DNA of 64,000 bases, from positions 11,173-75,172 of the IMG/VR virus record IMGVR_UViG_3300046740_000358, one strand, 5' to 3'. The stretch is from a virus. Position numbers and translations under genes: made by a program. Positions 40,336-64,000 of the stretch are shown here, piece by piece (the stretch's first letter is position 1; each line of letters opens with the position of its first letter). The notes under the pieces were generated by a model. It was not told the origin of the DNA and searched no databases. It saw only the letters and a program-made list of their open reading frames with translations.

Positions 40336-42279
40336 CTAGCCTCGGCCGTTGATTACGACCATGGCCACGCGAACGTCGGTGCCTTCGCTGCGAAACGATC
40401 CCGGGGGGAGTGGGCGGTACGAACCGCCGCACTCCTCAATCAGCGGCGCGAACGCCTCGCGACGCCCGGGCCCGTCGGCGCAGAGCGCGACCAGCCGGCC
40501 GTCGGGCTTGAGGAACGTATGCGCGTGAAGAATGTGCGCGATGTCCGCGCCCCGCACGAACGGGGGGTTCATGACGACCCGATCAAACCGTGCCAGCGCC
40601 ATGCCTCCGCCGGACACGCCGACGCTCGTGCTCAGGAAGTCCTCGACCACCACCGTTACGGCAAGGTGCCTCGGCAGCGCATGCGCAACGCTCGCGTTGA
40701 TCTCGACGGCTACCACCTCGGCGGCCTGCCCTCCGCCCGTGCGCGCTTGCTCGGCGTCGCCGATGGCCTCGAGGATTCGTCCCGTGCCCGCGCTGGGCTC
40801 GAGGACACGCATCCCCGGCCCGATGTCCGCGATCTCGACCATCCGCGCGGCCAGGGGGGCGGGGGTCGGGAACAACTGCGGCGCGCTGACCACCGTGACG
40901 CCGGCCTTCATGGACTGCTCGATGGCCTTGAACGGTGCGGCGGCGGCGTCCCGCTCGGCGCGGGCTGGCGCGGTCGCTGCGCGGTCTGCGGCGCGCTGTT
41001 CCAAGCGGGCCAACTCCTCGCGCGCCGCGCGGTCAACTTCACGCGCATGGTGATCGGCGCGCATCTTGGCTTCCTCGGCGCCCGGCTTGTCGTGCTTCTT
41101 TGAGTCGGTCAGATAGACGGCCGACTGCCCGTAGCCTACGCCGCTCACCTCAACGGCAGCGGCGCCACGCGCGGCCATGATGCGGCGCAAGGGGGAGTTG
41201 CAGACGATTCGGATCCGGTGCGTGCGGCACTCTGACAGCCGCGTGCCCTTGTAACTCGGGTCGACCTTGGCCAACTCCGCCTTGGTGACGCCGATCGCCG
41301 GCTCGCGGACAACGTCGCGGCCATACAGATACGCCACCTCGCCCGAGTAGTTGAGGATCGGCAGGTCTGACTTGGTCTTCGGCTTTGGGGGCGGCGTCCA
41401 CCCGGACTCCCCCAGCATGGTGCGCTCGTACGCGATGCGGTTCGTCAAGTGCTCGATCCACCGATTCGTGCTGGACTCCGGGTCCAGCGTTCGCCCAGCG
41501 TTCGCCAGCACGGAAGCGGCGGCCCACTTCTCGTCAACGATCCCGTCTTCCAGCGCCGACCACAGGCTCATGTCCCCTTCGTACTGCGATGCGGGGGGCT
41601 GGCGGGGGAACTCGGCCAGCGGAAAGCGTCGCGAGAAGTGGTTCATGTTTGCCAGCGCCAGCGCCTGGGCCTTGGTCAAGCCCTCTTGCGACCACGCCTT
41701 GACCGTCGCCTCGGCCTTGGCAATCGCTCGCTGGTACCCGCGGAGCTCGGCCTCGAGGGTCTTGATCCGCCGCGCCCGGACGGCCGGGAGTTCCTTGTAT
41801 TCGGCGTGCGCCAGCGCGGCGGCAGCTCGGCCCGTCCAGTAGGTCGACGTCTTCCACATCTTCACGGCCTTGGCCATGCCGCTCTGAATCCGTTCGGCGT
41901 CCTTCCGGGCCTTCCGCTCGGAGTGGTGACCGACAAGGATCGGCTGCCCGAACTCGAACCGCTTGGACACCTGTTCGACCTGGCGGCGGGCCCCGTCGGC
42001 ATCCGCCGCGCGGCGCTCGCTGTAGCCGTCGAACCGATCCGCGCGTGCCTCGGCTCGCTCGGCCAAAGTGGTGCTCTCGTCTTCGAGATCGTCTTGCCCC
42101 GACAGTTCGAGTGCCAGATCTTCGCGGGCGGGCGACCACACCGCATAGAAAACCTCCTGCTTGGGTGCCCACCCGTATCCCAGCGCCTTGACCCGCTGGT
42201 AGGTCTCGGTGTCGAGCTTCGCGCTGGCGCTGATTCGGATCTTGTCGTCGGCGGGGTCGTACGTTGCTGAAATGATCAT
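40336..42279 (-). CDS. DUF3560-domain protein fused to class I methyltransferase
   Basis: ATYDPADDKIR, FGQPILVGHHSERKARKD, then QLFPTP, VLEPSAGTG and VVMNPPF. Confidence 0.85.
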   Translation of the reverse strand: MIISATYDPADDKIRISASAKLDTETYQRVKALGYGWAPKQEVFYAVWSPAREDLALELSGQDDLEDESTTLAERAEARADRFDGYSERRAADADGARRQVEQVSKRFEFGQPILVGHHSERKARKDAERIQSGMAKAVKMWKTSTYWTGRAAAALAHAEYKELPAVRARRIKTLEAELRGYQRAIAKAEATVKAWSQEGLTKAQALALANMNHFSRRFPLAEFPRQPPASQYEGDMSLWSALEDGIVDEKWAAASVLANAGRTLDPESSTNRWIEHLTNRIAYERTMLGESGWTPPPKPKTKSDLPILNYSGEVAYLYGRDVVREPAIGVTKAELAKVDPSYKGTRLSECRTHRIRIVCNSPLRRIMAARGAAAVEVSGVGYGQSAVYLTDSKKHDKPGAEEAKMRADHHAREVDRAAREELARLEQRAADRAATAPARAERDAAAAPFKAIEQSMKAGVTVVSAPQLFPTPAPLAARMVEIADIGPGMRVLEPSAGTGRILEAIGDAEQARTGGGQAAEVVAVEINASVAHALPRHLAVTVVVEDFLSTSVGVSGGGMALARFDRVVMNPPFVRGADIAHILHAHTFLKPDGRLVALCADGPGRREAFAPLIEECGGSYRPLPPGSFRSEGTDVRVAMVVINGRG

Positions 42280-43330
42280 GAAAGCCTCGCGATCGTGAGA
42301 AACGCCGCCGCTGCGGCGTGGAGTCGTTGGTTGCTGTGCGGCTGCGGACAGAAAACATCGTGCCCGCCTGTCAACACCTGGATAACCTCCGTCGCGGCGG
42401 CGTGGTTCGCCTCCAAGGCTTCTCCTGCGATCTTCAATACCCACGCCTCAAGCTGCGCACGCGGCATCATGAAATCACCTCGGCTAGTTCTCGGCGCGCG
42501 TCATTGTGACACCGCTTCGAAGATCTCCAACAACTCGGCCCGCACCGCCTCCAGCCGTTGGAGCCGCGATCGGTGTTGGTCGCGCGCCATGGGGAACGCC
42601 GTGTCGCCGAGGGGGTAGTAGTCGCGCGCGTTCGGCGAGCACTCGGCCACCGCGTCGATCGCCAGCCGGACCGCGCCCTCGGCCTTCGCCAATTGCGATT
42701 CAAGCTCGTCGCGCGACGTGCCGTTGAGATGGACCATCGGCGCGATCCCGCCCACCGGCATTCCCGACCCGTCGACGACGTAATAGGTGTCTCCGGTTGA
42801 TGCCGCCATCCGCCCCGCCATCGCGCGAGCTTCTCCCAGATCCGTCGACTCGTGGACCGTCCTATCGCCGCGCTGGCGATTCCCGCGCTTCACGAAGTAT
42901 TCGCCCGTTAGCATTTCTCGACCTCCGAACACGTCGGACGGTGGAACCGCTCGCCGCCGCACTTCGTGCAGGCATAGCCGCCGACTACGCCGCAGATCGT
43001 GCAAGACCCCGTCTCGTCCACGCCACCCGCTACCGCGCAGTCCCCATCTGTGGTGTGCTGGACCGTCGCGGGGACCTCGGTGGTCGCCAATTGGTGACCG
43101 CACGCGCCGCATCGATAGCCGACGACGTGACAGATGTCTGCGCACGTTTCGGTTTCTTCGTAATCCCATTCCAACGGCTCGGCGCTATTCACCGTGATGT
43201 CCTGAGATGCGCCGATTAGTTGCTCCTCCACGAGATCTGATCCGATCACGTCGATGCCACACCCCGGGCACGTGTCCGGGAGTTCCATCTCCACCTCGGT
43301 AACGGTGACCTTGTCCATCTTGATCTTCAT
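42276..43330 (-). other. three small early-region ORFs (42276-42470, 42501-42914, 42908-43330 Cys-rich)
   Basis: RBS and coupled junctions; VHLNGTS...PNARDYY in the middle ORF. Confidence 0.55.
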
Positions 43331-49831: not shown

Positions 49832-50445
49832 TCAGGTCATCAAGATCGGCTCGAACCAGTGCCGGATGTTCCCAGTCTTGCCGGTGGCCTCTTCGGCTCC
49901 TGGCATCCCGAAGGCCGTCAGGACACGCGCGCACTCCGTATCATCAGGTGGCCGCCCGCGCTTCTCGATAGCCAGCCACCAATAGATGGCGTCCGCCTTC
50001 TCTGGCGAGGTCTCCTTGCCCAGACGCGACACGACCACAAGCCCGCCATACGACCACGCTTCCGAGTCCGCTGGCGCCGGCAGTCGGGTCCAGTGCGATG
50101 GCGGGCGGCGTGGCCGCCGCGGGTCCGCTGGCGGGTGGTGCGACGCCCGGAACATCCGCTCGGCGAGCTTCTCCACGGCCGCGCGCTCGGCGGCGGCGCC
50201 CTTGAATGGCTCGTCTTCGACTCGGTAGCGGCGCGTTTTTGTCTTCATATCGTCTGCTCGAGGCGCATGCAGTCTGGGCAAAACACCTTCGGGTAGTGGT
50301 CGACGTCCCAGCCGCCTGCTGCGGCGTTACCGATCAGGGCGTCGTCGTTTTCCCCGGGCTGGGAGACCTCGATCTCTTTGCACGGCTTGCCCGCGTCGTC
50401 GGTGCCGTCGCACCGCAGGACGCGGACCATCTCCAGCGTGATCAC
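49832..50445 (-). other. two small ORFs (49832-50248; 50245-50445 with CD..C / FCPDC Zn-finger)
   Basis: Coupled junctions. Confidence 0.55.
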
Positions 50446-51326
50446 TTCGACTCCCCCATGGCCGCGCGCAGTTCGCGGACGTAGGGCTCATAGACGACTC
50501 GGATCGTCTCCTCAGCCAGCGCGTATTCTGGGTTGGCGTACTGGGTGACCTCGCCGCCGGGGGACATGCGAAGGGACGAGAAGTGCCAGGCTACGAGTGT
50601 TCCACCGGCAACCGACGGTCCGTGCCGAGGTTCGTCCGGTCCGATCGCAGCCGCTTGGCTAGGCGCGAACTTCTTCGAGGTCCACGGCCCCGGGAACGCC
50701 CACGGGGGCAGGATGCTGGCCCCGCGAATAAGTGACAGCTCCTCCAGGAACTTCTGGTCCGCGAACTTCCCGTCTTCGGCGCGGAAGTAGCACCACGCGC
50801 GGGTCATGTCCGCCCAGCGACGGGCGATCTCCGCATCCCGCATGATGACCGACCCGCTGTTGTGGACGCCGTACAACTCGGCGTGGCTTTCGTGGGTGAT
50901 GCCGGGGAGGCCCTCGGCGGCGCACGCGAAGTAGTGGGGCATGAGGCCCATCGGCGCTTGGTGCAACTCAACTTGTTCGAACAGCGGCTCGGGCGAGGAG
51001 AAGAAATAGAGATCGGCGTCGAGTTGGCACACTGAATCGACAACGCCCCCGCGAAGTAGCAGCGCGGTCAGGTCGCCGCGCGCCGACCACATGCGCTCGT
51101 GCAGCGTCCGCGGCGGGCCCGGCAACTTACAGGTCATCCACGCCTCGGCGAGCTCGGGATGCGCCACCACGCCTCCCGCGTTCGGGCCCTCGGCCCAGGC
51201 CGTGACGTCGTCATCCCACGGCAGAACGTTGAGGGTGAACGGCGCGCAGTGCCGCACCATCGAGGCGTGCAGCACCTTCAGGCGTGGAATGAACGCGCGA
51301 TCGCAAACCGTGACGTAGTGTCTCAT
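50442..51326 (-). CDS. GT-A fold glycosyltransferase
   Basis: LHASM, QLDADLYFFSSP (DxD), HNSG, FADQKFLE and WHFS. Confidence 0.8.
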   Translation of the reverse strand: MRHYVTVCDRAFIPRLKVLHASMVRHCAPFTLNVLPWDDDVTAWAEGPNAGGVVAHPELAEAWMTCKLPGPPRTLHERMWSARGDLTALLLRGGVVDSVCQLDADLYFFSSPEPLFEQVELHQAPMGLMPHYFACAAEGLPGITHESHAELYGVHNSGSVIMRDAEIARRWADMTRAWCYFRAEDGKFADQKFLEELSLIRGASILPPWAFPGPWTSKKFAPSQAAAIGPDEPRHGPSVAGGTLVAWHFSSLRMSPGGEVTQYANPEYALAEETIRVVYEPYVRELRAAMGESK

Positions 51327-51694
51327 GTTGCCTTCCTAGGAACGGTCACCGCCCGTGCGGCGTCGAGGGCCGCGAGGATTGTTCCGATCGAACAGCCAGT
51401 CTCGTGGGCAGGCGCCGGTTCGAATGCGTGAAATACGACGCCACATTCGTAACACGCCGTTTCTTCGCGGTCGGAGATCCATTCCAGCCGGCGCAGCGCC
51501 GCCTCCATCTCCGGGGCGAGGCGGATCAACTCACCAGCCAGGGGCGACGCCAAGCGGACGTTCGGATCGTCGAAGTCGAACTCTCCGGAGATGACCTCGC
51601 GTCCATTCGCATCTTCGAGCCGCCAAGGCTTCCGAATGCCTCCCGAATCCGTCGTCATGGCCCACTGCCACGGCGCTGGGTGCTTGTCGCTCAT
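51323..51694 (-). CDS. hypothetical protein, paralogue of 3772..4272
   Basis: Shared HPAPW / LASPLA / IRLAPEMEAALR blocks. Confidence 0.7.
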   Translation of the reverse strand: MSDKHPAPWQWAMTTDSGGIRKPWRLEDANGREVISGEFDFDDPNVRLASPLAGELIRLAPEMEAALRRLEWISDREETACYECGVVFHAFEPAPAHETGCSIGTILAALDAARAVTVPRKAT

Positions 51695-51981
51695 CTGCCT
51701 TCCGCCCTTCTGTTGACCGCTTCGATTTCATCCCTTGGGTAGCCAAGCACCATCATCAACGTTGCGATCTGCACGTCGAGGCGCATCCGGATCAGGCGCC
51801 TCTCGTCGGCGTCGGGCTCCGTGGGAGTCAGCCACCCGTCCGGCTCAATCCAGCCGACGCGCGCCTCGTCCTGGATGTACAGCAGCGATTGCAGCAGTTC
51901 CTGGCTGGCCATCGTCCGCACGGGCCCCGGTGTGCTGATGGCTGCCGCGGCGATGACGCCGATGTCTTCCATCCGCGTCAC
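51691..51981 (-). CDS. hypothetical protein
   Basis: Coupled start and stop. Confidence 0.5.
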   Translation of the reverse strand: MTRMEDIGVIAAAAISTPGPVRTMASQELLQSLLYIQDEARVGWIEPDGWLTPTEPDADERRLIRMRLDVQIATLMMVLGYPRDEIEAVNRRAEGR

Positions 51982-52757
51982 CGCGACACCAACGTTCTTT
52001 CCGCCCAGTGGATAGGGCTGTCATCCTTGGACGACGCGAGCCACGCCGTTTCCTTTGCGATCGCCCCCAGCACCCCCGGGCCGTAGCCGCGGCCCGAGTA
52101 GATATTCTTGATGACGTTCGACGGCTGGCACTCCGAGGCGAAGGCTACCCGGTGGAACACGTCCCATGCTTGCCCATTCGGCGTGACGTGGATGCTCGGG
52201 CGGTCGACCCACATCGACAAGTGCAGCAGCATCGACCCGTTCACGTGCTGACCAGGGCCTGGGCGGTCCATCAGGCAGCCGGTCACGCGCTTGCCGTTGG
52301 CCAAGGCGCGATCGTGCTCGATCCTCAGCCGGTCAATCCAGTCGACCGACAGGGGGCACCCGTCGTGCTCGATCGTGAACACGGACGGGCGCCCGTGGCC
52401 AGCCTGCCATTGCTCGGCGAGCGTCCACACCGTCCCTGCCCACAGCGCGTTCGCTCCGTCGGGGTGGCTAGTGCGGGGCTCTTTGCCGACCTCATCCATG
52501 GGGTCCTTGATGGCCAGCGCCATCGTCGGGATCTTCTCTCGGCACCGCGCCAGCGTCGCCTGCAGGTCCGGCGAGTCTGGGCAGTCGGCCCGCCGGCACA
52601 GCGCCAGCGCGACATCGCATCGGGGTTTTGCCTCGATGTCCGCCAGCAGTCGCGCGAGCCGGAGGGCGAGCTCGGCGTCACCGCTCCAGTATTGAAGCGC
52701 GATCACGAAACCTTCCATTGGCGTGTCCACGTAGTTGCTCTCCATCGGTGCTGGCAT
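51978..52757 (-). CDS. putative glycosyltransferase-like protein
   Basis: HPDGAN, FTIEHDGCPL..DW (ExD), HVNG and AWDV. Confidence 0.5.
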   Translation of the reverse strand: MPAPMESNYVDTPMEGFVIALQYWSGDAELALRLARLLADIEAKPRCDVALALCRRADCPDSPDLQATLARCREKIPTMALAIKDPMDEVGKEPRTSHPDGANALWAGTVWTLAEQWQAGHGRPSVFTIEHDGCPLSVDWIDRLRIEHDRALANGKRVTGCLMDRPGPGQHVNGSMLLHLSMWVDRPSIHVTPNGQAWDVFHRVAFASECQPSNVIKNIYSGRGYGPGVLGAIAKETAWLASSKDDSPIHWAERTLVSR

Positions 52758-52887
52758 TCTTGGTTCTCTGCTCGCTCGAAGTGGGCGCCGAAGGACGCGT
52801 GCCCCGGCAAGGGCACGTACCTCTCACGAAATGAGACAAAATGAGCGATACGAGTGCGCCTTCGGCGCCCACTACGGGCGCAACTGT

Positions 52888-53523
52888 TCAGTCCGTCCAG
52901 AGCTTGTCGTCGTCTTCCTTGCGCCGCGCCTCGTGGTCCTCGCCGCCGTCCGCGGTCTCGGGGGCCTTCGCCGCGTCCTTCTTCTCCTTCGCCGTGGCGT
53001 CCGCCTTCACCTGGTTCTCGTCCTTCACGGACGCCAGCGCGGTCACGGTGCCGGGCTTCTTGGGCATCATCTTTTGCTTCTCTTCGGCGGTCATAGTCCT
53101 CGAGGCGAGGATCTCCTCAGTGTCGAGGCGCACCGTGTGGACGATATTCGCCGCGAAGACTCCGAACAGGCCGACCTTGTGCTCCTGGTCTTCGATGCCG
53201 CTCTCCATCGCCCGCATGAGTTGATCGAACTCTGCCTTGGACTTCTTGATCTTCGCGTTGATATTGTCGTCGAAATTCTTCTTCTCCATCTCCAAGCCGC
53301 CGATCTGTTTCCAGACCTTGTTGTGCTTGTCGACGCGCTCGTCCTTCTCCTTGGCCGACAACTTGACCGGGATCGACTTCAGGAACGTCTCCAGCGGCTT
53401 GACGTCCTTCCCCTTGGTGTTGAAGGTCTTCACGGCCTTGGCTGGCTTGGCGGGCTTCGCTGCGGCGGCCTTCGGATCTTTGGCGGGCTTGGCCTTCGTG
53501 GTGGTCGGCTTCTTTGATGACAT
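52888..53523 (-). CDS. Lys-rich coiled-coil phage protein, possibly DNA-binding
   Basis: Histone-like KPAK N-terminus; VRLDTEEIL..RTMTAEEKQ; GAAAGGA RBS. Confidence 0.7.
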   Translation of the reverse strand: MSSKKPTTTKAKPAKDPKAAAAKPAKPAKAVKTFNTKGKDVKPLETFLKSIPVKLSAKEKDERVDKHNKVWKQIGGLEMEKKNFDDNINAKIKKSKAEFDQLMRAMESGIEDQEHKVGLFGVFAANIVHTVRLDTEEILASRTMTAEEKQKMMPKKPGTVTALASVKDENQVKADATAKEKKDAAKAPETADGGEDHEARRKEDDDKLWTD

Positions 53524-53559
53524 GCGGGGCGGTTCCTTTCGGGGTCGGTTGGTTAGGGG

Positions 53560-55362
53560 TTACTCGGTGAACACGTCGGCGATCGTGACGTCTCCCCCGC
53601 TTGGTCCATGTATCAGGTCGAGCGTGCGCAGCCCAGAGAGGCCGTTGGCGAATGTCGAACTCGTGGCGCTGTATCCGGTAACGGCGGAAAGGGCCTCGCG
53701 CGAAATCGTTCGCGCCCCATAGATGCGCGCCAGCATCACGCCTTCGCAGCGGTTCAACTTCGGCACCCAATATTCCAAGAGGGCGTGGCCACGCGGTGGC
53801 GGCTCGGACCCCAGTCCCATCGACGTCGCACGCTCTTTCCCCGCGTCGGTAATTCGCCGCCGCCCGTTGTCGCCGTCCAGCAGGCCAGCCACGCGGAGTT
53901 CCGACAGAGCGTTCGCGAACGTCGAACTGGTCTTGCGGTACCCGGACAGCGCCGAGATCGTGGGGTCGGACGCCACACCGCGTGACGCCAGCACGCCGAG
54001 GATAGCGCGACCGGCCCGAGACAGTTGCGTCGCGCTGACGGCATCGGCGTGCATTTCCCTCTGGCCAGCAACCGTTCTTACGCTCGGGTTAAGTCCGTTG
54101 ACGTGGTCGGCGACGGACGGCGGCAATGTCACCGTGCGCGGCGCCGAGTCGCGAATCCCAAGCGCCACGCCCACCTCGGGGAACGCTCCGATGATGCCCA
54201 GTCCGTGCGCGCGCACGTCGATCACAAGCGCCATCAACTTGGCCAATTCCTCGTCGACCTGCTTCCGGATTGCGGCGAACCTCGGCCCGGCCTTTGCCAA
54301 TTCAACATCGAACAGCCGTCGGATCTCCTTGGGGCATCGGTATTCGATCCGCACCTCCGCCTTGGCTGGGTTCTTTACCATTCCAGCCGGAGGCGCCTTG
54401 GTAGCGCGCTCGAGTTCGGCGATCCGGGCCTTCAGCGCCTTGGGGTCGTTTGCCTTCGCGTCGGCCACCACCTGGGCCATCGACGATTCCAGCGCGGCCA
54501 AGTCCAGCGGCTTCGTGGTGACGGCTGCCCGGCTGGCCCCCGGTGTCGAGCTGGCGTCGTAGGTCGTCTTAGCCGCCAACGTGTGCATCCCGTAGACGTT
54601 GAAGACCGATGGGCTCCAGACGATGGCGGTCCCCATCTTCAGGCTGGGCAGTTCCCCTGCAACCTCGGTGCGGCCGGCGATGCCCTTCTGCTGGACCCAG
54701 TCCGCGATCGTCTTCCGCTCCTGGGGACCCAGCATCCGGAAGCCGAACACGTTCTCGGAGAGGTTCAGGACACCTTTGTTCAACTTCTGCGGGCGCAGCG
54801 ACAGCAGGATCAATCCGATGCCGAAGTTCCGGCCGACTGACGCGATGTCATCGAACGACCCGAGGCACCGGGCCATGTCGGGGGAGGCGTGCTGCACCAT
54901 CTGCGGGATCACGTCCTGTGCTTCCTCGAGGATGAGAGACACCGCCGAAGGCTTGCGCTTCTTTGCGTCGATGAACGCCTCGGCGAAGTCGGCGCAGAAC
55001 CGGATCCGCTCCCCCTTCCGCATCATCGAAATGTCCAGGACCGCCGATGACCCGCTCGCTGCCAGCGCCTCGGCCACCTGGCGCCCCGCCTGCGGGGACA
55101 GCGTGATGTCGCCGTGGGTACCGCCCAGGACGGGAATCTTGAAGCGGCTCGGCGTCTTCCCGTCCGGCTGCAGGCGCAGGCCGAACCACGGCCCCACCTG
55201 GTCAATGACGATCACGGGAATCCCGGCGTCCATCAATCCCTCGGCGATGACGCCGGCAGTGGTGCTCTTGCCGCTCCCGCGGATGCCCAGCAAGGCGGTT
55301 ACCGACGTGGCCAGCGCCAGCGCGTCGAGGTCGAGGCCCTTACCAACGTGAACCTTTTTCAT
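53560..55362 (-). CDS. HerA/FtsK-superfamily ATPase with two C-terminal wHTH-like repeats
   Basis: GIRGSGKST (Walker A), LILEEAQ (Walker B), GRNFGIG and RPQKLNK; SSTFAN twice. Confidence 0.85.
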   Translation of the reverse strand: MKKVHVGKGLDLDALALATSVTALLGIRGSGKSTTAGVIAEGLMDAGIPVIVIDQVGPWFGLRLQPDGKTPSRFKIPVLGGTHGDITLSPQAGRQVAEALAASGSSAVLDISMMRKGERIRFCADFAEAFIDAKKRKPSAVSLILEEAQDVIPQMVQHASPDMARCLGSFDDIASVGRNFGIGLILLSLRPQKLNKGVLNLSENVFGFRMLGPQERKTIADWVQQKGIAGRTEVAGELPSLKMGTAIVWSPSVFNVYGMHTLAAKTTYDASSTPGASRAAVTTKPLDLAALESSMAQVVADAKANDPKALKARIAELERATKAPPAGMVKNPAKAEVRIEYRCPKEIRRLFDVELAKAGPRFAAIRKQVDEELAKLMALVIDVRAHGLGIIGAFPEVGVALGIRDSAPRTVTLPPSVADHVNGLNPSVRTVAGQREMHADAVSATQLSRAGRAILGVLASRGVASDPTISALSGYRKTSSTFANALSELRVAGLLDGDNGRRRITDAGKERATSMGLGSEPPPRGHALLEYWVPKLNRCEGVMLARIYGARTISREALSAVTGYSATSSTFANGLSGLRTLDLIHGPSGGDVTIADVFTE

Positions 55363-55841
55363 TGTGCCTTTCGTCCCCCACGGACACGCCGCCCGGCTCG
55401 CTCAGGGAGGGAGTCTGGTTGAACCGGACGGCGTGCCTCAATGGCGGAATCTCTCCACTGCAGCCACCGCGCGAGCCTATCGCGCAGTGGGACAAACTTG
55501 TATTCGTCGTGGTACCGGCAGAGCGGCACGTCTTCTGGTCCGTGCGACGGCGATTCAGCGCACAGCCGACACGTCGTCAGGTGGCCCTTTTCGTTCCGCT
55601 CCTGCGCGTATCTGTCGCGTCGACTGAAGATCAGGCGCATGGCCGCCATCCGATAGGCCACCGCTCTCCCAACCACGAACCGCGCGCGCCGCTTTCTGGT
55701 CGCTAGGTACTCGGCGCCTGTCGCTTCGTCGTAATAGAAAACGTGCCCGTCGTACTCCCATTCGACGCGGTACTGGACGCGCACCACGCGGGTGATTCTG
55801 ACGCACGGACGGGTGCCCAGCGGTGCGATCGGATTGTTCAT
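55359..55841 (-). CDS. hypothetical protein
   Basis: ATGA coupled; CRLC..CRYH. Confidence 0.5.
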   Translation of the reverse strand: MNNPIAPLGTRPCVRITRVVRVQYRVEWEYDGHVFYYDEATGAEYLATRKRRARFVVGRAVAYRMAAMRLIFSRRDRYAQERNEKGHLTTCRLCAESPSHGPEDVPLCRYHDEYKFVPLRDRLARWLQWRDSAIEARRPVQPDSLPERAGRRVRGGRKAQ

Positions 55842-56701
55842 TTTGACATGGCCACTTGGGCAGCCAGGGCGGAGGTCATGAAAAAGAGTTCCTTCACCTT
55901 GCCCCGCTTGGCGGTGTCGGAGTTGATGCTCCGCGCGGCCATGATGCTCTCGACCGCGGCCCCGTCGTAAAGTTGGCGGGCAAGGTCCACGTTGGCGTTG
56001 CAGGCCAGCGCCGACACGCCCGCTCGGTCGATGCGCGCGAACTCGGCCGCCAACCGCTGCTGGTCCTCGAGCACGAAGCCTCCCTTGGTGTACGACGTGA
56101 ATGACGCCGTTTTGCTGACCGGGAAGTACGGCGGATCCCATACGATCGCGTCGCCGAGGCGGGCCTTGCGCGTGACGTCGGCGAAGTCCGCGCAGACGAT
56201 CGTGACCTTCCTATCGTTCAGGACCTGGGCGCACGCCTTCAGCCGGGCCGGCGAGACGAATATCTCCATCTTCGCGTTGTCGCCATAAGGGATGTTCATC
56301 TCCCCCGCGGCGTTCACACGCCACATGCCGTTGAACCCGGCCTTGTTCAGGAAGATGTACCGCGCCCCCCTGGCCTCGTCGGTCATCTTCCCCGTCCGCT
56401 GGGCCCGCACCCGGAGGTAGTGGGACTTGCTGTGCCGGTGGCGGGCGAGCTCGCGCAGCACCCCCACATGGTTCCGCTGGATGGCGAGCCACGTCCGGAT
56501 CAACTCCTCATTCGCGTCCGCCAGCACCGCCGACCGGAAGCGCCCCGCCTGCGCGAGGGCCCAGAACAGCGCCCCCCCGCCCACGAACGGCTCGTAATAG
56601 GTCGCGATGGTCGCCGGCATCAACTCCAGCAGCCGCCAGACGCAATGGCCCTTTCCCCCCGTCGCCTTGATGAAGGGCGCGGCCTTCGATTCAGTCCCCA
56701 T
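55838..56701 (-). CDS. dam: DNA adenine methyltransferase (Dam/D12 class)
   Basis: GGK, YYEPFVGGGA, DANEELI, LNKAGFNGMWRVN and WDPPY. Confidence 0.9.
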   Translation of the reverse strand: MGTESKAAPFIKATGGKGHCVWRLLELMPATIATYYEPFVGGGALFWALAQAGRFRSAVLADANEELIRTWLAIQRNHVGVLRELARHRHSKSHYLRVRAQRTGKMTDEARGARYIFLNKAGFNGMWRVNAAGEMNIPYGDNAKMEIFVSPARLKACAQVLNDRKVTIVCADFADVTRKARLGDAIVWDPPYFPVSKTASFTSYTKGGFVLEDQQRLAAEFARIDRAGVSALACNANVDLARQLYDGAAVESIMAARSINSDTAKRGKVKELFFMTSALAAQVAMSK

Positions 56702-56709
56702 GCAGATAC

Positions 56710-59700
56710 CTATCGGCCCGGCGGGGGATATTCGATCGGAGTTTCTTCGGAATTCGACGACGGCGCCTCCGCCGTCCCGCCCGCCTTGGGCGCTGGCGTG
56801 CCGTCGCACATGCCTCGCGATGCTTGTACGTTCCTGCGGGCAGTGTCTTCCCAAAACCAGTACCACCACGCCATGCACCGTTCCCGTTCCTCCTCCACCG
56901 CCTCGGCCACGCGGGTATCAATCTGCGCCGTCCGCTCGCCCGCCCGTGAGGTCCATTCCGCCAAGTCATGCTCCAGCCGCTCCGCCGTCGAGTGAGCAAT
57001 CTTGGCCGCCTGTTCGTGGTCGCGCGCCTCGCGTTCAAGTAGGGCGACCTTGCGGGTCAGTTCGTCGTTCGACACTTCGAGACCATGGATGATGGCGTCG
57101 CGGGTGGTCAGCTGCGACTCAAGAATACCGATCGTGTCGTCGAGTTGCTGCGCCCCTTCCTCAGCGAAGTTCAGTCGGTCGGCGATGTCAGCGAATTGTC
57201 GCCTCGCTTCGTCGCGTTCGTCCGTGAGACCGGCGACGCGTTCACGAAACTCCTTCGTAACCTTGAAGTCGGCTTCACGTTGGCGGTCGGCCGCGTTCGC
57301 GTCGTCGTCGCGGCCTTGCTCCTCGGCTTCAAGTTGAGCCTCCAACCCGGCCGTGCGCTCCGTGAGACTGGCGACGCGGGCTTCGAGGGTGGCGAATTGC
57401 TCCCTGGCCTCACTGAGCGGCGTGGGGTGTCCAAGGTCCTGGTCGCACTCGGAATAGCCGCAGCGTCCGCCGCACTGGCACGGCGCAACGGGCGTGGCGG
57501 CTATAGCGTGAACGGCTCGTCCATCAGCGATCTTGGAACCCGTCGGACCTTCCGTAGATACGCGAGCACCTGCCGTATGGCTTTCAGGTCCCGAAGCATT
57601 CGCGCCTTCTCTTTCTTGGTCATTGGGTCCTTTCGCGGGCGTGGCGGCTGGCTCGGCGATGGGCGCATCCTTCGCGAGTCCACCAAATCGCATCGAACCC
57701 ATGCCGCCCACGTCGCGTGACTTGCGCTCCTCAAGGATTCGAGGCGCGACGCGAGCGCGGGCGGCGATTAGATCGGCCTCTACTCGGAGATATCCTCGAA
57801 CTTCAAGAGGTAGTGCTTCTTCGGAATGAAGACCCCGTGAGCGCCCTGGTTCGTTATGGACATCTCGATCTTTCCGCTCGGTGTCGCCTCCGACCATGAG
57901 GCATTCCCCGGGCCGCTCGCCGCCGTGAACTCCACCACCTCCTGGTTGTACTCGTTCTTCTTCACGCTCGTGCATCGGAACTTCGCCTGAATCGTCATCT
58001 TCGGTCCTTTCTGTTGGTCGTTGTTCGGTCGGTTGCGAATCTACCGGCGCGCTCGGCTCGGCGATGGGCTCCAAGATGTCGAAGCACCCAGCGTTCCACC
58101 ACGGCACGAATGCTGGCGACCTATGCGCCCAATTCACCTGCATTGGTGCGTCCATCGGACGATCTTCGCGCCGGTCGCGCGGCTGCCCTCCGACGAGCCT
58201 AGCCAGCACGATCCACGTCCCCCTCGGCGGGACCTCAACCCCCGGCCCGCTCCTCCCGACCACGCGGTGACCAGCCGGCGCGCTCGGCTCGGCTGCCTGC
58301 TTTTTACAGTTGCACCACTCCGGGCGAGTCTCGCCGCAGTTTGCGCACCTCGGCTGCTCGGCTGCCTGCTGGACCGGGGCGTCCTTCGCTTCGTTTCGCG
58401 CCCGGGTTCGGCAGAACTCGGTGCAGAAACATGGGTGCTCGTCTCCGCTATTTTCCGGCTTGAAGCAGGCTGCCCATTTCTCCCCGCCGCGCCCGGTGCA
58501 GTGGCGGTCGCCCGAGACGCCAACCTTCCCGCACCCATCCTTGCACGGCCCGCTCGGGTTGAACCCATCGGCCCATCGGCCGTCGGCGTGGCGGACGATG
58601 CGATAATGCGCGCGGTGAAATCGTTTCTCGCCGGCCAGTCGAACGGGGTCCTCGGTGCCTGTCGCCCAGCGACGAACAGACCCCGCACGACAACGCTTCG
58701 ACCACGAGGCAACGACCGTGCCCGCATCTGGCTCATCACGTCCGACGACCTCCGGAACTTCCCCCGTCGGCACGAACCGCGACCAGTCGACCTCCTCGGC
58801 GGGCTGGACGGGGACCAGCGCGCCCATCTCGACGGCGTGACGAGGGCAGGCGGCGCGTTCGTTGTTGGAATGCATGTAGGGCGAAGCGGCCACGCAGTCA
58901 GCGCGGCCCGTTCCCGTGCCTTGGTCGTATCCGTGGAAACACTTCCAGTGGTACGGGGATTGAAGGCGCCACCCCTCGCCCAAAACGAACCCATCGGGCA
59001 CGCCGCCAGTCGACGGGGGCTCCGGGCGATCGCACTTCATGGCGGCCCGGCGCTTCTGGATACGGTACCACTCTTCGGTTCCGTAGTGCGGGCGATACGA
59101 GCAATTCCCGGCGACGCATCCTTGCTCGGGCGTCGACCTGAGTGGCCAACCGCAGATTTCGCACTTGAACGGTTGCTCGGCTGCCTTCGTCTCGACTGCG
59201 CACCAGCCACAACCGGGGCACTTCGGTTGCTCGGCTGCCTGCTGGACATGCCCGAACCCATCGCACGGGCACCCCGAATCGCCGTCGCCCATGCAAGGCC
59301 CATTGCCCGCCTGGGAATGGTCGAATCTGTAGTGAGAACAGAATGCGCACGCTGCCCTGGCCGGCTCGGCTGCCTGCTGGACCGGGACCAGGGCGCCCAT
59401 TTCGACGGCGTGAGCGGCGCAGGCTCCGTGGACGCTGGTCCAGGCCGTCGCGGCTTTGCCGCAGTAGTATCGCGCTGGAAGATCTACGACGAATCCACAT
59501 ACCTGCGTATATCCAAGGCCCGCCTCCCACCCGCTTCCCAAGACGAACCCATCGGGCACGCCGCCAGCCGACGTGGGTTCCTTTTCCGGTGTCGTCGGTT
59601 GCTCCTTGGTAATCTCCCATGTCCTGCCGTCGATAGAACGGGCGTGGCAACCGGCGCAGACGATGAATATGCCGTCCTGTCGATGGACCGACGGGGGCTC

Positions 59701-60444
59701 CGGGCGAGACGGGGCGGGGGGATGCCAACTACACACGTAGCCTTCGCCGGGGTGACGGGCGACTTTCTGACAACCGGGGCACGGCTCTCCGGGGTGCTGC
59801 GGATGGTCGGGCATCGCCAACGCCGGCTCGACCTTGGGAGACGAGGCGGGCGTGTTCTTGAACCCGGGTAGGAACTGAACTCCGACGGTGTGCTCGACAG
59901 CCGGCCGCCACGTCAGTCCGCAGTTCTGGCACGAGTGCGTGTGGTGTGGCTTCGTCGCGAATTCCCCTTCGTCGATATGAAGCGTGCTGCACGTCGGGCA
60001 CGGGATACGCATCGGTATCGCCGAGGGCTTCGCCTGCTCGACCTTGGGCTCGGCGGGGCGGATACAGACGCCAGCGTCGCGACATTCCTTCGACGTGAAG
60101 TGCTGGCGCCGCGCCGTACGAAAGCACCTGGTCGGAAATTGGCAGTAATGCCCGTTCATCTCCAGGTCTTCGGTGTCGAGACGGCTCCCGCATTCCGGCG
60201 AGCACGTCGCCCCCGTCGTCGGTTGCGGCGGGTCGACCCGCGCGAGCCTAGACGTTTCCGCGCTGACGCGGTCAAGCAGCCGGTCAACTCTCGCCAGGTC
60301 ATACGGCTCACCCCCCGCGTCTCGCTTCGGGAGCGCCGCGAGGAAGGCGCTCACTGTCGCCCAGTTGACGTCTACCCACGCTGAGCCAACCGCGCGTAAT
60401 AGCGCCGCCTTGAAGTCGTCCACGCTGTACCGTCGGTCATTCAT
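56710..60444 (-). CDS. 1244-aa mosaic protein of Cys/His-rich modules with C-terminal coiled coil
   Basis: AGGAG RBS before MNDRR; repeated linkers QQAAEQP, GGVPDGFVLG, HAVEMGALVPVQ, RPEPPS, PKVE, PIAEP and AATP. Confidence 0.7.
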   Translation of the reverse strand: MNDRRYSVDDFKAALLRAVGSAWVDVNWATVSAFLAALPKRDAGGEPYDLARVDRLLDRVSAETSRLARVDPPQPTTGATCSPECGSRLDTEDLEMNGHYCQFPTRCFRTARRQHFTSKECRDAGVCIRPAEPKVEQAKPSAIPMRIPCPTCSTLHIDEGEFATKPHHTHSCQNCGLTWRPAVEHTVGVQFLPGFKNTPASSPKVEPALAMPDHPQHPGEPCPGCQKVARHPGEGYVCSWHPPAPSRPEPPSVHRQDGIFIVCAGCHARSIDGRTWEITKEQPTTPEKEPTSAGGVPDGFVLGSGWEAGLGYTQVCGFVVDLPARYYCGKAATAWTSVHGACAAHAVEMGALVPVQQAAEPARAACAFCSHYRFDHSQAGNGPCMGDGDSGCPCDGFGHVQQAAEQPKCPGCGWCAVETKAAEQPFKCEICGWPLRSTPEQGCVAGNCSYRPHYGTEEWYRIQKRRAAMKCDRPEPPSTGGVPDGFVLGEGWRLQSPYHWKCFHGYDQGTGTGRADCVAASPYMHSNNERAACPRHAVEMGALVPVQPAEEVDWSRFVPTGEVPEVVGRDEPDAGTVVASWSKRCRAGSVRRWATGTEDPVRLAGEKRFHRAHYRIVRHADGRWADGFNPSGPCKDGCGKVGVSGDRHCTGRGGEKWAACFKPENSGDEHPCFCTEFCRTRARNEAKDAPVQQAAEQPRCANCGETRPEWCNCKKQAAEPSAPAGHRVVGRSGPGVEVPPRGTWIVLARLVGGQPRDRREDRPMDAPMQVNWAHRSPAFVPWWNAGCFDILEPIAEPSAPVDSQPTEQRPTERTEDDDSGEVPMHEREEERVQPGGGGVHGGERPGECLMVGGDTERKDRDVHNEPGRSRGLHSEEALPLEVRGYLRVEADLIAARARVAPRILEERKSRDVGGMGSMRFGGLAKDAPIAEPAATPAKGPNDQEREGANASGPESHTAGARVSTEGPTGSKIADGRAVHAIAATPVAPCQCGGRCGYSECDQDLGHPTPLSEAREQFATLEARVASLTERTAGLEAQLEAEEQGRDDDANAADRQREADFKVTKEFRERVAGLTDERDEARRQFADIADRLNFAEEGAQQLDDTIGILESQLTTRDAIIHGLEVSNDELTRKVALLEREARDHEQAAKIAHSTAERLEHDLAEWTSRAGERTAQIDTRVAEAVEEERERCMAWWYWFWEDTARRNVQASRGMCDGTPAPKAGGTAEAPSSNSEETPIEYPPPGR
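57501..57623 (-). CDS. nested 40-aa ORF in alternative frame
   Basis: GAAAGGA RBS; MTKKEKARMLRDLKAIRQVLAYL; bounded by 14-bp direct repeats. Confidence 0.5.
   Translation of the reverse strand: MTKKEKARMLRDLKAIRQVLAYLRKVRRVPRSLMDEPFTL
57780..57998 (-). CDS. nested 72-aa phage-type protein in alternative frame
   Basis: GAAAGGA RBS; AKFRC..ATPSGKIEMSITN..F..K.Y..F, a motif I recall from stand-alone phage genes. Confidence 0.65.
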   Translation of the reverse strand: MTIQAKFRCTSVKKNEYNQEVVEFTAASGPGNASWSEATPSGKIEMSITNQGAHGVFIPKKHYLLKFEDISE

Positions 60445-60568
60445 CGGTCTTCTCCTGCTTTCTTGCTTTCTTGCTCTGTCGTTTCCGCCACAATCCGACG
60501 AACACCGCTGGCAGCGCGACCAGCAGAAACAGCGCCGGGAACGCGGCGCAGGCGACGATTTCACTCAT
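60437..60568 (-). CDS. 43-aa membrane peptide
   Basis: MSEIVACAAFPALFLLVALPAVFVGLWRKR; overlaps the 60444 start. Confidence 0.45.
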   Translation of the reverse strand: MSEIVACAAFPALFLLVALPAVFVGLWRKRQSKKARKQEKTDE

Positions 60569-62812
60569 CGGTCGTCCCCTTGTCGCTCGCGTCGGCCAGG
60601 AAGGTCGACGTGTCAATTTCTATTGTCGTCATTCCCGCGTTGAACCGCCATCGATACAGCAGCCCGCGCGCCGCTTCCAACTTCACCGCGAGCGCTCCGT
60701 GCGCAAGGGCAAAGATGTCCCGTTCGGCCTTCGCGGCGGCGAGATCGTCGGCGAGTCGAACGATGACGTTCGACACCACCTCGTGCCGCCACTCCCAATC
60801 CTCGCGCAGGCCCTCGCGTGCGGAAGTGACAACGGCGGAAACAAGTCCAGGGTCCTCGTCCGTCGGGCGGCTCATCGCGCACCGCCGAATCGAATCTCAT
60901 ACGTCCCGTTGTGCATCGACGCGGCGACCACGCCCCAGAAGTACCCGCACATCCACTCCCAACTCACCTCCCACCCCGCGACCAAACGCCGAACGGGCCG
61001 ATCTCCCATCGCTTCGTCGTGCTCATTTCGCTGCCCTCGCCTTCGCCAGTGATACGCCCTCCGGGTGCCCCTTCTTTCGCGAACCGTAGAACACGCGCCG
61101 CTTTCGCATCGGCATCGCGGCCAGTTCCTTGGCGACGCCAGGGTCGGATATCGACAGCATCGAAGAACGGGCGCTCTCCATGGACCGAACGGCTGCGCGC
61201 TTCTGCGGCCTATCGGACGGCGCCTCTGCCAACGCCGCTGCCAGATCGGGGCTTGCGTACAGGTGACCTCGTGAGTCCATTATCGTTTCGCCTTTCCCGC
61301 CCCGGGGCGCTTCGTGGGTTTCGTTGCCTGGTCGATGGTCGTGATGGCCTGGTGCCACCAGTCCCCCGTCTCGAATCCCTTCTTCGACCGGAAGTAGCGG
61401 TTCAGTTCCCGCAGCGCAGGCGCGATGGTGCGGCGGATTCGACGGCGCTCATCGTCGATGCCCACCACGAATCCCTCCGCGTAGTCGGGGCCTTCTTCCG
61501 CGCGGAGGCCCGCGACCAAGTCGCGTCGGCGCTTGTCGTCGCTCATTTCGTCCTGGCCTTTCTCGCGTTGACGTGGTCGACGTTCGCGACCTCGCATCGG
61601 CTGTTTTTGTCATCCCAGACGCTCAGCGGACCGCCCCATGCAAACTGGTTGAAGTGCTGCCCTGTCTCGCCGCTGTCACGGCACTTAAACCGAAAGTGGC
61701 CATCGCCAAGCGGCGCGAAGTCGATCAAGTGAACCGGACGAGGAGCGAGCTTCATCATCTCGCCTTTCTCGCCCCGGGGCGCTTCGTGGGTTTCGTTGCC
61801 TTGCAAACGAACGCGCGGCACGATGGGGCGCCGCAGTGAAAATGTTCAAGAGGAAAATCGAACGGACGTTTGCAGTTAGGGCACGTCTCGCGGTCCGGTT
61901 GCTTCGCCGGGCGCTTCGTGGGTTTGGTTGCCGAGTCGATGGCGTCCATCAGGGCGACCACTGCGGGGTAGGCGCGGTTCCAGGGTCGCTTGCTGTCTGC
62001 GGCTCCCCTCGCATTCCCCAGCGCGGGCGCGATGGCGAGGCGGATTTCCTTGGTGGCCTCCTTGCGGCCGTGCGCCACGCCTTCGTCGAAATGCGCCTTC
62101 TTCCATCGGCTGTACGACTCGGCGTTGAACGGCTTGTTGTCGAGGTTGCGCAGGTCGGTCGGAATTGTCGTGGACGTCATCCCGCAGAGGCAACTCGGAA
62201 TGGACAGTCCCGGCTCCCTCGGACGCTCGCCGCAAGCGTCGCACCGACCGTGCACGTCGAGGCGCTGGCCGAATGGACCGCGTTCGCATTGCTTCGTTGC
62301 CATCAGCCGCCCTCCTTCGCCCGCGCGTCTATGTTCAGCAGCCAAGCGAGCGCGTCTGCGCATCTGATAACCATTGCCGTTCGCTCGATCGGACAAGGAA
62401 CCGTGCGTGACATGTTGCGCGCCTCCCGTGAAACCTCGGCCCAAATGCCCGCCTCCGCCGCCGCGCGGTCGCCGTCGATGGGCGGGACGGCGGGGCGCCC
62501 GGTATTGCGGCACGCATCGGTATCGAACCACGTAAACGGGCCGCCTCGCTCCAATGGCTCCAGCACGAAGCAATGCTCACCGCGCGGAGGCAACTCGCCG
62601 GTACCGCACCACGGTCTGCATTCTGACTTCGCCGGCTCAGCTAGGCCGCGCTGGCAGAGGGCTTCTATGTAGCCCCAGGCCACGTCGGAGTTATGCGCAA
62701 GAGGAGGCGGAACGACGTCTGACTTCGACCCCCGGTATCGTCGATGCATCCGCGCCGACTCCACATCAGCCAGCAGTTCCTTCAGCGCGAGACGCGCGGG
62801 GTCGGTGCTCAT
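60561..62812 (-). other. chain of small ORFs (60561-60875, 61023-61280, 61280-61546, 61543-61758, 61755-62303, 62303-62812)
   Basis: Coupled junctions; shared ATKPTKRP ends. Confidence 0.55.
61288..61932. repeat. 42-bp direct repeat (61288-61329, 61760-61801; partial 61909-61932) encoding ATKPTKRPG
   Basis: Read directly; one mismatch between the two long copies. Confidence 0.85.
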
Positions 62813-62825
62813 GTCAGTAGCCCTT

Positions 62826-63236
62826 TCATCGTCGCGATCTCCTATTCCCCGCCGACAGGTAGCGAGACGTGGTCTCCGCGATCCACCCATCTTGCAACTC
62901 GCTCCGACCAGCGGCGCCCAACGCATCGAACACGCCGTACCCGCCCCACTTTCCCGTGATGTCCTCGTGGTGGCCGTCGCAGCAAGGTACTGTCGTGTCC
63001 TCGCCCGACTTCATCCCCATGCCCGGTTTCTTGCCAGCGTGGTGGGGAACCACGCGACCGCGGCACGGGCCCCAACCAACGCGGGCGATGCACTCTTGCT
63101 CGCGGCACCAGTCGCGTCGGGCGGTGTCGACGACGGCGATCTTGGTCTTGCTGCGCTGGTTGATGTACTTGCGGCGCTGCTGGCCAGGGCGCATGGGTGG
63201 CTTGCGCGGAAGGGGCTTCGGAAAGGCAGGCGTCAC
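62826..63236 (-). CDS. DUF968/HNH-like Zn-binding protein
   Basis: WCREQEC..VPHHAG..GMGMKS.D.TVPCCDGHH. Confidence 0.65.
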   Translation of the reverse strand: MTPAFPKPLPRKPPMRPGQQRRKYINQRSKTKIAVVDTARRDWCREQECIARVGWGPCRGRVVPHHAGKKPGMGMKSGEDTTVPCCDGHHEDITGKWGGYGVFDALGAAGRSELQDGWIAETTSRYLSAGNRRSRR

Positions 63237-63291
63237 TTGTGCGCCGCCTCTTTCTTCCGCGCCGCCTTCACGGCTGCTTCCTCGGGCGACA

Positions 63292-64000
63292 TCATGACCC
63301 GAACGCCTCCAGTCGCTTGGCGATGTCCTCGATGTCGGCGCACGCTCTGTCAAGCGCCTCCCCGGCCTCGTTCGAGACCAACCGGACGGGGGCGAACTGA
63401 ATCACCTTCTCGCGGATGGCCTGGGCGAACGCCGCCAACTTCTCCCTGTCTGGGCGCAGGGCCTCGGCCCGCTCTCGCTCGGCGATGGCGACCGCTTCGT
63501 CATCCGTCTGCAGGGCAGCGTGCACCACGCCGCACGCCTTGCCGTCCGTGATCGAACGTCCGCAGGATTCACAAGGGATAGCTCGCAGACGGGCGCGCTC
63601 GACGGCGGCCCGTTCTTGCAGGTCGCGCAACGCTGATTCCTGTGCCTCGCGCTCGGTGCGCTCCTTCTCTTCCTTGATCTTGCGCTCCGCCTCGGCCTTC
63701 TCGGCTTCGAACTTCCGCCGGTCCTCGTCGAGCTTCTTTCGCTCGGCGGCCTGGCGCTGCTCCTCTTTCTTGCGGGCCACCTCGAGCTTGGCGCTCTCCT
63801 GGTTGAGGCGGTCCTGCTCGATGCCCTGCAGGCGGGCGGTCTCGGCGATGGCCGCTTCCTGCGCGGCGAGCTCGGCGCGCGTGGCAGCCTCCGCGGCTTC
63901 CCGGGCCTCGCGCTCCACCCGTTCGCGCTCGAGGCGCTCGGCGTTCTCGACCAGGAACTTGGCGTGGGCCTCCTCTTTCTCGATGACCTTGATCGCTTCG
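63292..64000 (-). CDS. coiled-coil protein, 5'-truncated by window edge
   Basis: E/R/A/K-rich heptads; EALRPDREKL. Confidence 0.65.
   Translation of the reverse strand, partial: EAIKVIEKEEAHAKFLVENAERLERERVEREAREAAEAATRAELAAQEAAIAETARLQGIEQDRLNQESAKLEVARKKEEQRQAAERKKLDEDRRKFEAEKAEAERKIKEEKERTEREAQESALRDLQERAAVERARLRAIPCESCGRSITDGKACGVVHAALQTDDEAVAIAERERAEALRPDREKLAAFAQAIREKVIQFAPVRLVSNEAGEALDRACADIEDIAKRLEAFGS

Follow-up and report, generated by a model that had tools for sequence, protein, structure and literature searches.

A 1244-residue frame in an uncultured myovirus: a probable mosaic of Cys/His-rich mini-domains with small genes inserted into one linker

Introduction

How is a phage protein assembled from many small units joined by repeated linkers, and what becomes of its reading frame when other genes land between them? 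These questions are raised by a 3.7-kb open reading frame (ORF) at positions 56710-60444, minus strand, of a 64,000-nucleotide (nt) stretch of viral DNA, hereafter the window, within which all positions below are counted. The window corresponds to bases 11173-75172 of a 75,172-bp IMG/VR record (IMGVR_UViG_3300046740_000358) with direct terminal repeats. A first-pass annotation had described the ORF as an accordion locus, in which frame-preserving modules bounded by direct repeats are gained and lost by recombination at the linkers. The ORF gives a product of 1244 amino acids (aa), and its translation is designated P0001; other P numbers denote collected proteins, and L numbers denote loci. The analysis presented here favours, with a probability of roughly 0.68, the view that P0001 is one real "beads-on-a-string" gene product, built by linker recombination and carrying inserted genes.

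Results and Discussion

One gene over most of its length

For most of its length, the long ORF is one real gene. Its open frame on the minus strand runs from 60564 to 56710, includes the 1244-aa ORF of the first-pass annotation, and encodes a mosaic, multi-module, Cys/His-rich coiled-coil protein for which two starts can be envisaged. The ATG at 60444 (stop codon at 56710-56712) follows an AGGAGA Shine-Dalgarno (SD) motif with a spacing of 6-7 nt, and no other in-frame start of the ORF has such a motif. The GTG at 60564 overlaps the stop codon of the upstream gene (GTGA), and the region between the two starts holds a terminator-like hairpin (60532-60549) and shows weak GC content at third codon positions (GC3). 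Because of this hairpin, the weak GC3 and the SD motif, the ATG is preferred. The GC hairpin has a T-rich tail on the minus strand and lies in a 117-nt gap after a 104-aa gene (stop codon at 60561-60563); given its location ahead of the ATG, the long ORF may begin a transcription unit of its own or be attenuated.

GC3 in the frame of the long ORF (the host frame) lies at 0.72-0.86 in two stretches, 60420 to about 58140 and 57540-56880, which supports this frame for approximately 3.1 of the 3.7 kb, and neither a stop nor a frameshift interrupts it. Homologues of several modules (M3, M9 and the core, see below) were found in the same frame, and 47 of the protein's 54 Cys residues precede the insertion described below. 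Among public sequencing runs, the sequence occurs in just one, a DNA run from a soil metagenome that is probably its source and is stored only as contigs. One Logan contig of that run (74,601 nt, depth 38) is identical to the window over 56000-61000, so the open frame is not one assembler's artefact; the underlying reads are probably the same. Searches with P0001 retrieved no Pfam, PHROG or NCBIfam family beyond weak coiled-coil matches (zero PHROG matches at E ≤ 0.1), and sequence searches of the PDB were empty. On the plus strand, a 616-aa frame is open at 58021-59871; it runs antisense to the long ORF, failed the GC3 coding filter and was taken as a chance frame of the sort usual in DNA so rich in GC.

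Modules along the protein

P0001 is modular: it consists of about 14 small modules, mostly Cys/His-rich mini-domains of 13-100 aa, plus a coiled coil, and the earlier description of many such modules separated by re-used linkers is borne out. All of them are encoded on the minus strand. The protein begins with a helical domain (residues 41-115; 60220-60444), which by eye resembles the N-termini of P0087 and P0102, and P0023 aligns to residues 67-237.

The latter stretch includes M3, a 55-aa zinc-ribbon module (residues 183-237; 59845-60018) with the pattern CPxC...HIDEGEFATKPHHTHxCQxCG...GVQFLPGFKN. It has 75 homologues at 45-85% identity, 34 of them no longer than 120 aa, and the module is often located at the extreme C-terminus. 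Among its columns C7, C30, C33, H14, H25, H26 and H28 are invariant and C10 is nearly so. A zinc ribbon is recognized by two CxxC/CxxH knuckles on beta-hairpins; M3 has both knuckles, and the hairpins are seen in its AlphaFold model, a generic Zn-ribbon fold with a predicted local distance difference test score (pLDDT) of 71. A fold search with this model gave no significant match, the best being zinc ribbons (ZitP, ribosomal ribbons, LysW), and in the ESM Atlas M3 met unnamed viral clusters only, and the core nothing. The invariant His/Asp cluster could form a second metal site. An HNH nuclease was also considered for the His cluster and was rejected by inspection, as the second CxxC follows directly after HHTH. 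In isolate phages, M3 stands among arrays of small early genes or is fused to other domains, its carriers being Citromicrobium RXM gp77, Erythrobacter L02 and Burkholderia BcepF1 gp044. In the last of these (2538-3704 of locus L015), M3 forms the C-terminal end of a protein (388 aa) that carries the annotation sulfatase-modifying-factor enzyme.

Further along, M6 (59365-59571; GGVPDGFVLGxGW ... HAVEMGALVPVQ) is a paralogue of M10 (58795-59013), the second VPDGF/HAVEMGAL module; the two share a 25-nt exact repeat and a 73-nt repeat at 75% identity, and modules homologous to M6 are present in P0075, P0079, P0082 and P0083. Between them, three QAAE(Q)P linkers (59161-59382), which are exact repeats of 15-23 nt, enclose M7 (residues 402-442) and M8 (448-460) and lead to M9 (residues 466-512, about 47 aa; 59029-59169; CxxCGWPL...GCxxGNCSYRP...W..IQ.RR). 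M9 is a promiscuous module matched by 138 collected proteins, 54 of which are no longer than 120 aa, the module spanning nearly the whole small protein, as M3 likewise does in its small carriers. M3 and M9 are thus two very widespread mini-domains, absent from Pfam and from the named PHROGs, and the other modules were found in relatives of 204-797 aa only.

The family core (58354-58794) is formed by M11 (DWSRFVPT...RHADGRWADG) and M12 (GPCxxxCG...CFxxxxxxCTxFCRxR), and is collinear in P0077-P0083, P0102, P0114, P0140, P0171 and L006-L011, with invariant D, W, F, P, RHA and GRW. M11 is modelled as a small beta-barrel (pLDDT about 90), for which the fold search returned no significant match, but weak Tudor/SH3-like similarity (Z ≤ 3.5). 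Nearer the C-terminus lies M14 (58055-58293; GHRVVGRSGP...WNAGCFDILEPIAEP), with homologues in P0075, P0077 and P0098. The C-terminal part (56710-57502) comprises a CQCGGRCGYSEC mini-module, a PLSE motif, the coiled coil (about 56881-57417) and a tail. Residues 1050-1228 gave weak coiled-coil matches (Tropomyosin/SMC/Rad50). The Trp-rich tail, ERERCMAWW...GTPAPK, is conserved: it aligns with that of P0077 (E 5e-7), and similar tails are found in P0083, P0098, P0114, P0140, L009 and L010.

Linkers copied as DNA

With a minimum length of 14 nt, 12 maximal exact direct repeats (14-25 nt) occur in the ORF, each at an offset divisible by 3; when its codons were shuffled 300 times, such repeats numbered 0.07 on average and 2 at most. 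Three of them had already been recorded, and were found at the same places: 25 nt at 58985-59009 and 59543-59567 (offset 558), 15 nt at 57650 and 58055 (offset 405) and 14 nt at 57489 and 57636 (offset 147), each offset indeed a multiple of 3. The peptides listed as occurring twice (HAVEMGALVPVQ, RPEPPS and PKVE) are all present in two copies, to which the peptide GGVPDGFVLG can be added. The QAAE(Q)P linkers do recur, though five copies of AAE(Q)P were counted instead of about six.

Several of these repeats mark the edges of modules. AEPSAP is a 19-nt exact repeat flanking M14 (58275-58293 and 58044-58062, offset 231), RPEPPS is likewise a 19-nt exact repeat (59011 and 59689, offset 678), and PKVE, with 17 of 18 nt identical, flanks M3 at an offset of 210. 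The 25-nt repeat of GGVPDGFV and HAVEMGALVPVQ mark the two ends of the paralogues M6 and M10, whose centres cannot be aligned; other linker repeats are 15-23 nt long. Moreover, all five QAAE(Q)P linkers are coded GCA-GCC-GAG, and GCA makes up 6% of the Ala codons in ten confident genes of the phage. The presence of this rare codon in five linkers out of five shows that they were copied as DNA and are not merely convergent peptides. The linkers are generally rich in Pro, Ala and Glu, and are lineage-specific: QAAEQP in P0001, GKPDEAP in P0087 and P0102, AAEPTP in P0031 and APAEPLS in L005, L009 and L010.

A 552-nt insertion with genes in another frame

The linker between M14 and the coiled coil holds an in-frame insertion of 552 nt (405 + 147; 57503-58054, minus strand), recognized by its composition and by the corresponding junctions of relatives. 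Its layout is R1a (58055-58069), cassette B, R1b (57650-57664), immediately followed by R2a (57636-57649), cassette C and R2b (57489-57502), where R1 encodes PIAEP (15 nt) and R2 encodes AATP (14 nt). Thus, the offsets of 405 and 147, formerly taken as bounds of protein modules, bracket two cassettes with out-of-frame genes, and what had been counted as two of the frame-preserving modules is an inserted pair of such genes. Relatives lack the insertion: in P0077, ILEPIAEPPAPA leads straight to the coiled coil, and in P0075 a linker of just 14 aa precedes the next Cys module. Without the insertion, the junction would read ...CFDILEPIAEPAATPVAPCQCGG..., which parallels ...CYDILEPIAEPPAPAVG plus coiled coil in P0077 and ...CFDILEPIPAAPVEEPAVPPVCSWTCG... 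in P0075.

The insertion has a GC content of 60% (57% for gene B and 56% for cassette C), against 66.5% in the ORF and the window. Between 58080 and 57600 the host-frame GC3 drops to 0.38-0.57, and the GC content at the first host codon position rises to 0.80-0.87 over 58080-57780, being about 0.70 thereafter; such a pattern marks coding in the +1 frame. The host-frame translation of the insertion is rich in G, E, R and A and poor in Cys and His.

Gene B (57780-57998, minus strand, +1 relative to the ORF) encodes 72 aa, with an AAAGGA ribosome-binding site (RBS) 6 nt upstream and a GC3 of 0.83. It matches phrog_6978 (E 7e-6), and its full-length homologues are free-standing genes of about 75 aa in seven isolate-phage records, among them Rhizobium phage PPF1, Synechococcus phages and Escherichia phage Fraca, at unrelated genome positions. 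Homologues were also found in 29 IMG/VR loci with GC contents of 35-67%, all in open frames of 79-188 codons. Judged by this distribution, gene B is a bona fide conserved phage gene. ORF C (57501-57623, 40 aa) lies in the same +1 frame and has a GAAAGGACC-type RBS like that of gene B. No homologue was found among isolate phages at E ≤ 1, so that its reality rests on the RBS and on composition, and its status as a gene is weakly supported. A search of Rfam over 56500-60900 gave no match at E ≤ 1, thus no recognized intron or RNA element, an element of unknown kind being possible.

Relatives with other subsets and orders of modules

The nearest relatives are multi-module proteins that match residues 513-842 at 30-48% identity. 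Overall, multi-module relatives of 204-797 aa carry differing subsets and orders of modules. P0077 (498 aa) consists of M11, M12, a Cys module and M14, followed by the coiled coil and the tail ERARCLAWFW...GKPAP; P0083 of locus L005 (366 aa) has M3, an M6-like module, a Cys module, M11, coiled coil and tail; P0075 combines M6, M14 and Cys modules with a coiled coil; and P0082 (797 aa) has M11 and M12, two M6-like modules and a coiled coil. In P0098 (204 aa), M14 is directly followed by the tail, and P0078 and P0079 are without a coiled coil. In P0078 (L006), a Lar-like zinc module (residues 359-410) is fused C-terminally in its place; the match to PF14354 (E 3.4e-5, 24.4 bits) is under the cutoff of 28.6 bits.

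The elements that recur are the sub-order M6/M10, M11, M12, the PLSE(R) motif before the coiled coil and the ERxRC...GxPAP tail; all else varies. In content and order of modules, related loci do differ, but several relatives keep the sub-order of VPDGY/HAVEMGAL module, DWSRF/RHADGRWADG module and Cys module, which means that shuffling is not free. The C-terminal coiled coil, described as constant, is conserved together with the tail in about half of the relatives. P0001 contains in one frame the elements that define the family (the DWSRF...RHADGRWADG core, the PLSE-coiled coil and the ERxRC...GxPAP tail), and is the largest member seen, as no listed relative with the core exceeds 797 aa.

Close relatives were found neither by an IMG/VR peptide-pattern search, for the ORF or for the phage, nor by a word search of proteins of 706-2247 aa, which P0080 and P0082 escaped, to be found later by a representative search. 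Similarly, the core has no close relative in GTDB species genomes, residues 240-850 have none among isolate phages, window positions 50000-64000 gave no megablast match, and in the long-context relative (L005/L012) the neighbouring genes had no informative Pfam matches.

Proposed assembly of the protein

In the reading favoured here, P0001 would start with the helical domain, continue with about 14 small modules, mostly of zinc-ribbon type, and one small beta-barrel, and end in a long coiled coil followed by the Trp-rich tail. Recombination between copies of the linkers would add, duplicate and remove modules, some of which may have begun as captured stand-alone genes. The linker PIAEP.AATP would have taken in the lower-GC 552-nt insertion with its two small +1-frame genes. 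These would be translated from their own ribosome-binding sites, and ribosomes in the host frame would read the insertion as a 184-residue disordered spacer. Of the accordion idea, the modular ORF, the DNA-copied linkers, the units flanked by exact in-frame repeats and the differing relatives are retained, while ongoing gain and loss was not seen.

Several observations weigh against this reading. No close relative, at more than 50% identity, was found, so no recent event of gain or loss could be observed. No variant appeared in the one soil run, available as contigs at a depth of 38, and contigs drop rare variants; a single "joint" in the run search (22-nt side, 85% likeness setting) was dismissed as noise. 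No RNA run is among the public runs holding the sequence. Zinc binding by the modules is predicted from CxxC patterns alone, fold and family searches gave no match that would assign a function, and the sub-threshold Lar-like match is in the relative P0078, not in P0001. In addition, a junk frame of 325 aa spans the homologue of gene B in L017, and the chance of an in-frame, stop-free insertion is about 1-8%, which is suggestive, not significant.

If the proposed assembly is true, the locus offers a concrete view of phage proteins put together from small stand-alone early proteins. Models of modular phage evolution have long assumed recombination "linker sequences"; these would here be found within a coding frame, with rare-codon evidence at the DNA level. 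It would also illustrate that a flexible linker is able to absorb whole foreign genes while the host reading frame is uninterrupted. The phage is uncultured, and the present value of the locus is its evolutionary anatomy, not a demonstrated mechanism.

A more far-reaching proposal, which we put forward tentatively and regard as rather unlikely, is that the reiterated linker sequences of 14-23 nt are portable recombination sites, the ORF being a gene-capture platform inside phage coding sequence, similar to integrons or exon shuffling. Small genes landing in frame and losing their stop would become new modules, as M3 and M9 look to have done, whereas out-of-frame arrivals would stay nested genes, like B and C, tolerated only if the host frame is kept open.

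Alternative explanations

The main rival of the assembly proposed above is a gene broken by the insertion and now decaying: the N-terminal modules would be made, followed by meaningless read-through, with the coiled coil and tail disconnected. In its favour, the host-frame GC3 collapses across the insertion, and long junk frames are common in DNA of 67% GC. The insertion is divisible by 3 in length and free of host-frame stops; how often would this arise by chance? The host frame was open in 19% of trials in which the synonymous codons of B and C were resampled and in 4% when the spacers were shuffled too, and among 184-codon windows taken from ten confident genes, 23% are open at that frame offset; to these values, an extra factor of 1/3 applies for a length divisible by 3. 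The resulting chance is the one given above, roughly 1-8% or more, and selection keeping the host frame open over the insertion, a candidate explanation, was accordingly found not significant. Nevertheless, the sequence on either side of the insertion is still typical of the family and keeps a high GC3 in one and the same frame, there are zero stops or frameshifts over 3.7 kb, and a disordered insertion would be tolerated most readily by a protein with flexible linkers. The frame-preserving, stop-free insertion suggests that the host protein is still made, and the typical flanks together with linker tolerance favour continued translation. Hence, we regard translation across the insertion as probable, and a decaying gene as unlikely.

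A second alternative is a polyvalent protein packaged in the virion (in the sense of Iyer et al. 2017) and injected with the DNA. Polyvalent proteins of phages and conjugative elements hold 2-15 domains per polypeptide; their content varies between relatives, their domains also occur solo, and a role in phage-host conflict has been proposed for them (PMC5512222). P0001 resembles them in being large, phage-encoded and multidomain (about 14 modules plus coiled coil), with architectures that vary among relatives and solo forms of individual domains, and the phage has other large multidomain genes, e.g., the one at 40336-42444. However, no conflict-related enzymatic or processing domain (MPTase peptidase, ART, methylase, helicase, nuclease) was detected in P0001, nor a MuF, portal or other characteristic domain, its modules being Cys-rich mini-domains of 13-100 aa with a conserved coiled coil and tail. 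Over 20 kb, moreover, separate its gene from those for head and tail, and its neighbours are genes for a Dam methylase, an ATPase and unknowns rather than portal/MuF/terminase, type IV secretion system or conjugation genes. With two defining features lacking, P0001 is not filed among the polyvalent proteins, and its packaging seems quite improbable.

Could the protein instead be a polyprotein, cleaved at the (V)QQAAE(Q)P-like linkers to free small zinc-ribbon proteins equivalent to stand-alone early proteins? M3 and M9 do occur elsewhere as whole stand-alone proteins, the linker motif is highly stereotyped, and processing of polyvalent proteins by peptidase domains has been described (PMC5512222). 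Against it, no peptidase domain was found in the ORF with Pfam, PHROGs or NCBIfam, the differing linkers of other lineages (GKPDEAP, AAEPTP, APAEPLS) fit spacers better than a cleavage site, and the conserved coiled coil and tail point to an intact multivalent protein, which leaves cleavage with little probability. Lastly, a chance open frame over a string of separate small genes, with no single protein made, is largely refuted: high GC does yield many long spurious ORFs and two real small genes do lie within this one, but GC3 backs the frame for most of its length, no internal in-frame start with an SD motif occurs, relatives have the same modules fused in single proteins, and a gene needs a stop to end.

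Possible function and comparison with known systems

As to function, P0001 might act, oligomerized by its coiled coil, as a multivalent scaffold of independent binding modules made early in infection. For host takeover or anti-restriction, every mini-domain might bind a target of its own, either from the host or a nucleic acid, a suggestion made with low confidence. Indirect hints to an early host-interaction or anti-restriction role come from the location of M3 homologues among early genes, from the orphan Dam methylase next to the ORF, from the fast architectural turnover and from the Lar-like module of P0078. The first-pass annotation had suggested a variable anti-defence or host-interaction display; the anti-defence idea draws on context and on that one sub-threshold module in one relative. 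M3 and M9 are, in this respect, candidates for host-takeover or anti-restriction functions that could be tested cheaply, one by one.

Lar, the restriction-alleviation protein of the Rac prophage (PF14354), is a small CxxC...CxxC protein of a phage early region, and the Lar-like module of P0078 provides a likeness to it; P0001, however, has no PF14354 match, and that of P0078 is below the Pfam cutoff. Ea22-type proteins of lambdoid phages are encoded in the early region, look non-essential, and combine a coiled-coil part with mosaic segments that phages exchange. P0001 shares with them the coiled coil and mosaic build, but greatly exceeds them in the number of modules, and differs in its reiterated linkers within the gene and in being rich in Cys. 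The resemblance to Ea22/Ead noted before does not extend to homology: the PHROGs, which we assume to include the Ea22 families, gave no match to P0001 at E ≤ 0.1, and the comparison is an analogy only.

Nested genes and morons are likewise known in phages, an example being Rz1 inside Rz. Gene B appears similar in that it is complete, with its own RBS, in another frame of a larger ORF. The embedded gene is here the older and widely conserved one and the host reading is novel, which differs from classical overprinting; moreover, gene B would have come as an insertion between linker repeats, not over existing sequence. Overprinting has been reviewed (PMC8227390). The locus belongs to the known theme of mosaic multidomain phage proteins, of which it represents an unannotated family with an unusual gene-in-linker insertion.

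Genomic setting

The window has a GC content of about 67%. PHROG matches to tail sheath, baseplate hub and wedge, major head protein, head protease, portal and large terminase identify the phage as a myovirus, and all of these matches fall at 13-34 kb of the window. The long ORF sits in a long minus-strand stretch of non-structural genes. Directly downstream of it, an orphan Dam-type N6-adenine DNA methyltransferase is encoded at 55838-56701 (minus strand; PF02086, E 2e-39), with a likely start at ATG 56701, 8 nt past the stop of the long ORF; an alternative start at GTG 56878, which would give a 169-nt overlap with the long ORF, is unlikely.

The C-terminal 200 residues of a 702-aa protein (40336-42444, minus strand) match segments of giant PHROG profiles of 1200-3900 positions annotated as DNA methyltransferase, and the product may be fragment-like or a polyvalent-type protein. 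The gene following the Dam-type methyltransferase encodes a 600-aa HerA/FtsK-like ATPase (53560-55362, minus strand) with a HerA/DUF87 P-loop N-terminus; it is weakly similar to a large-terminase PHROG and is distinct from the true terminase at 32162-33601.

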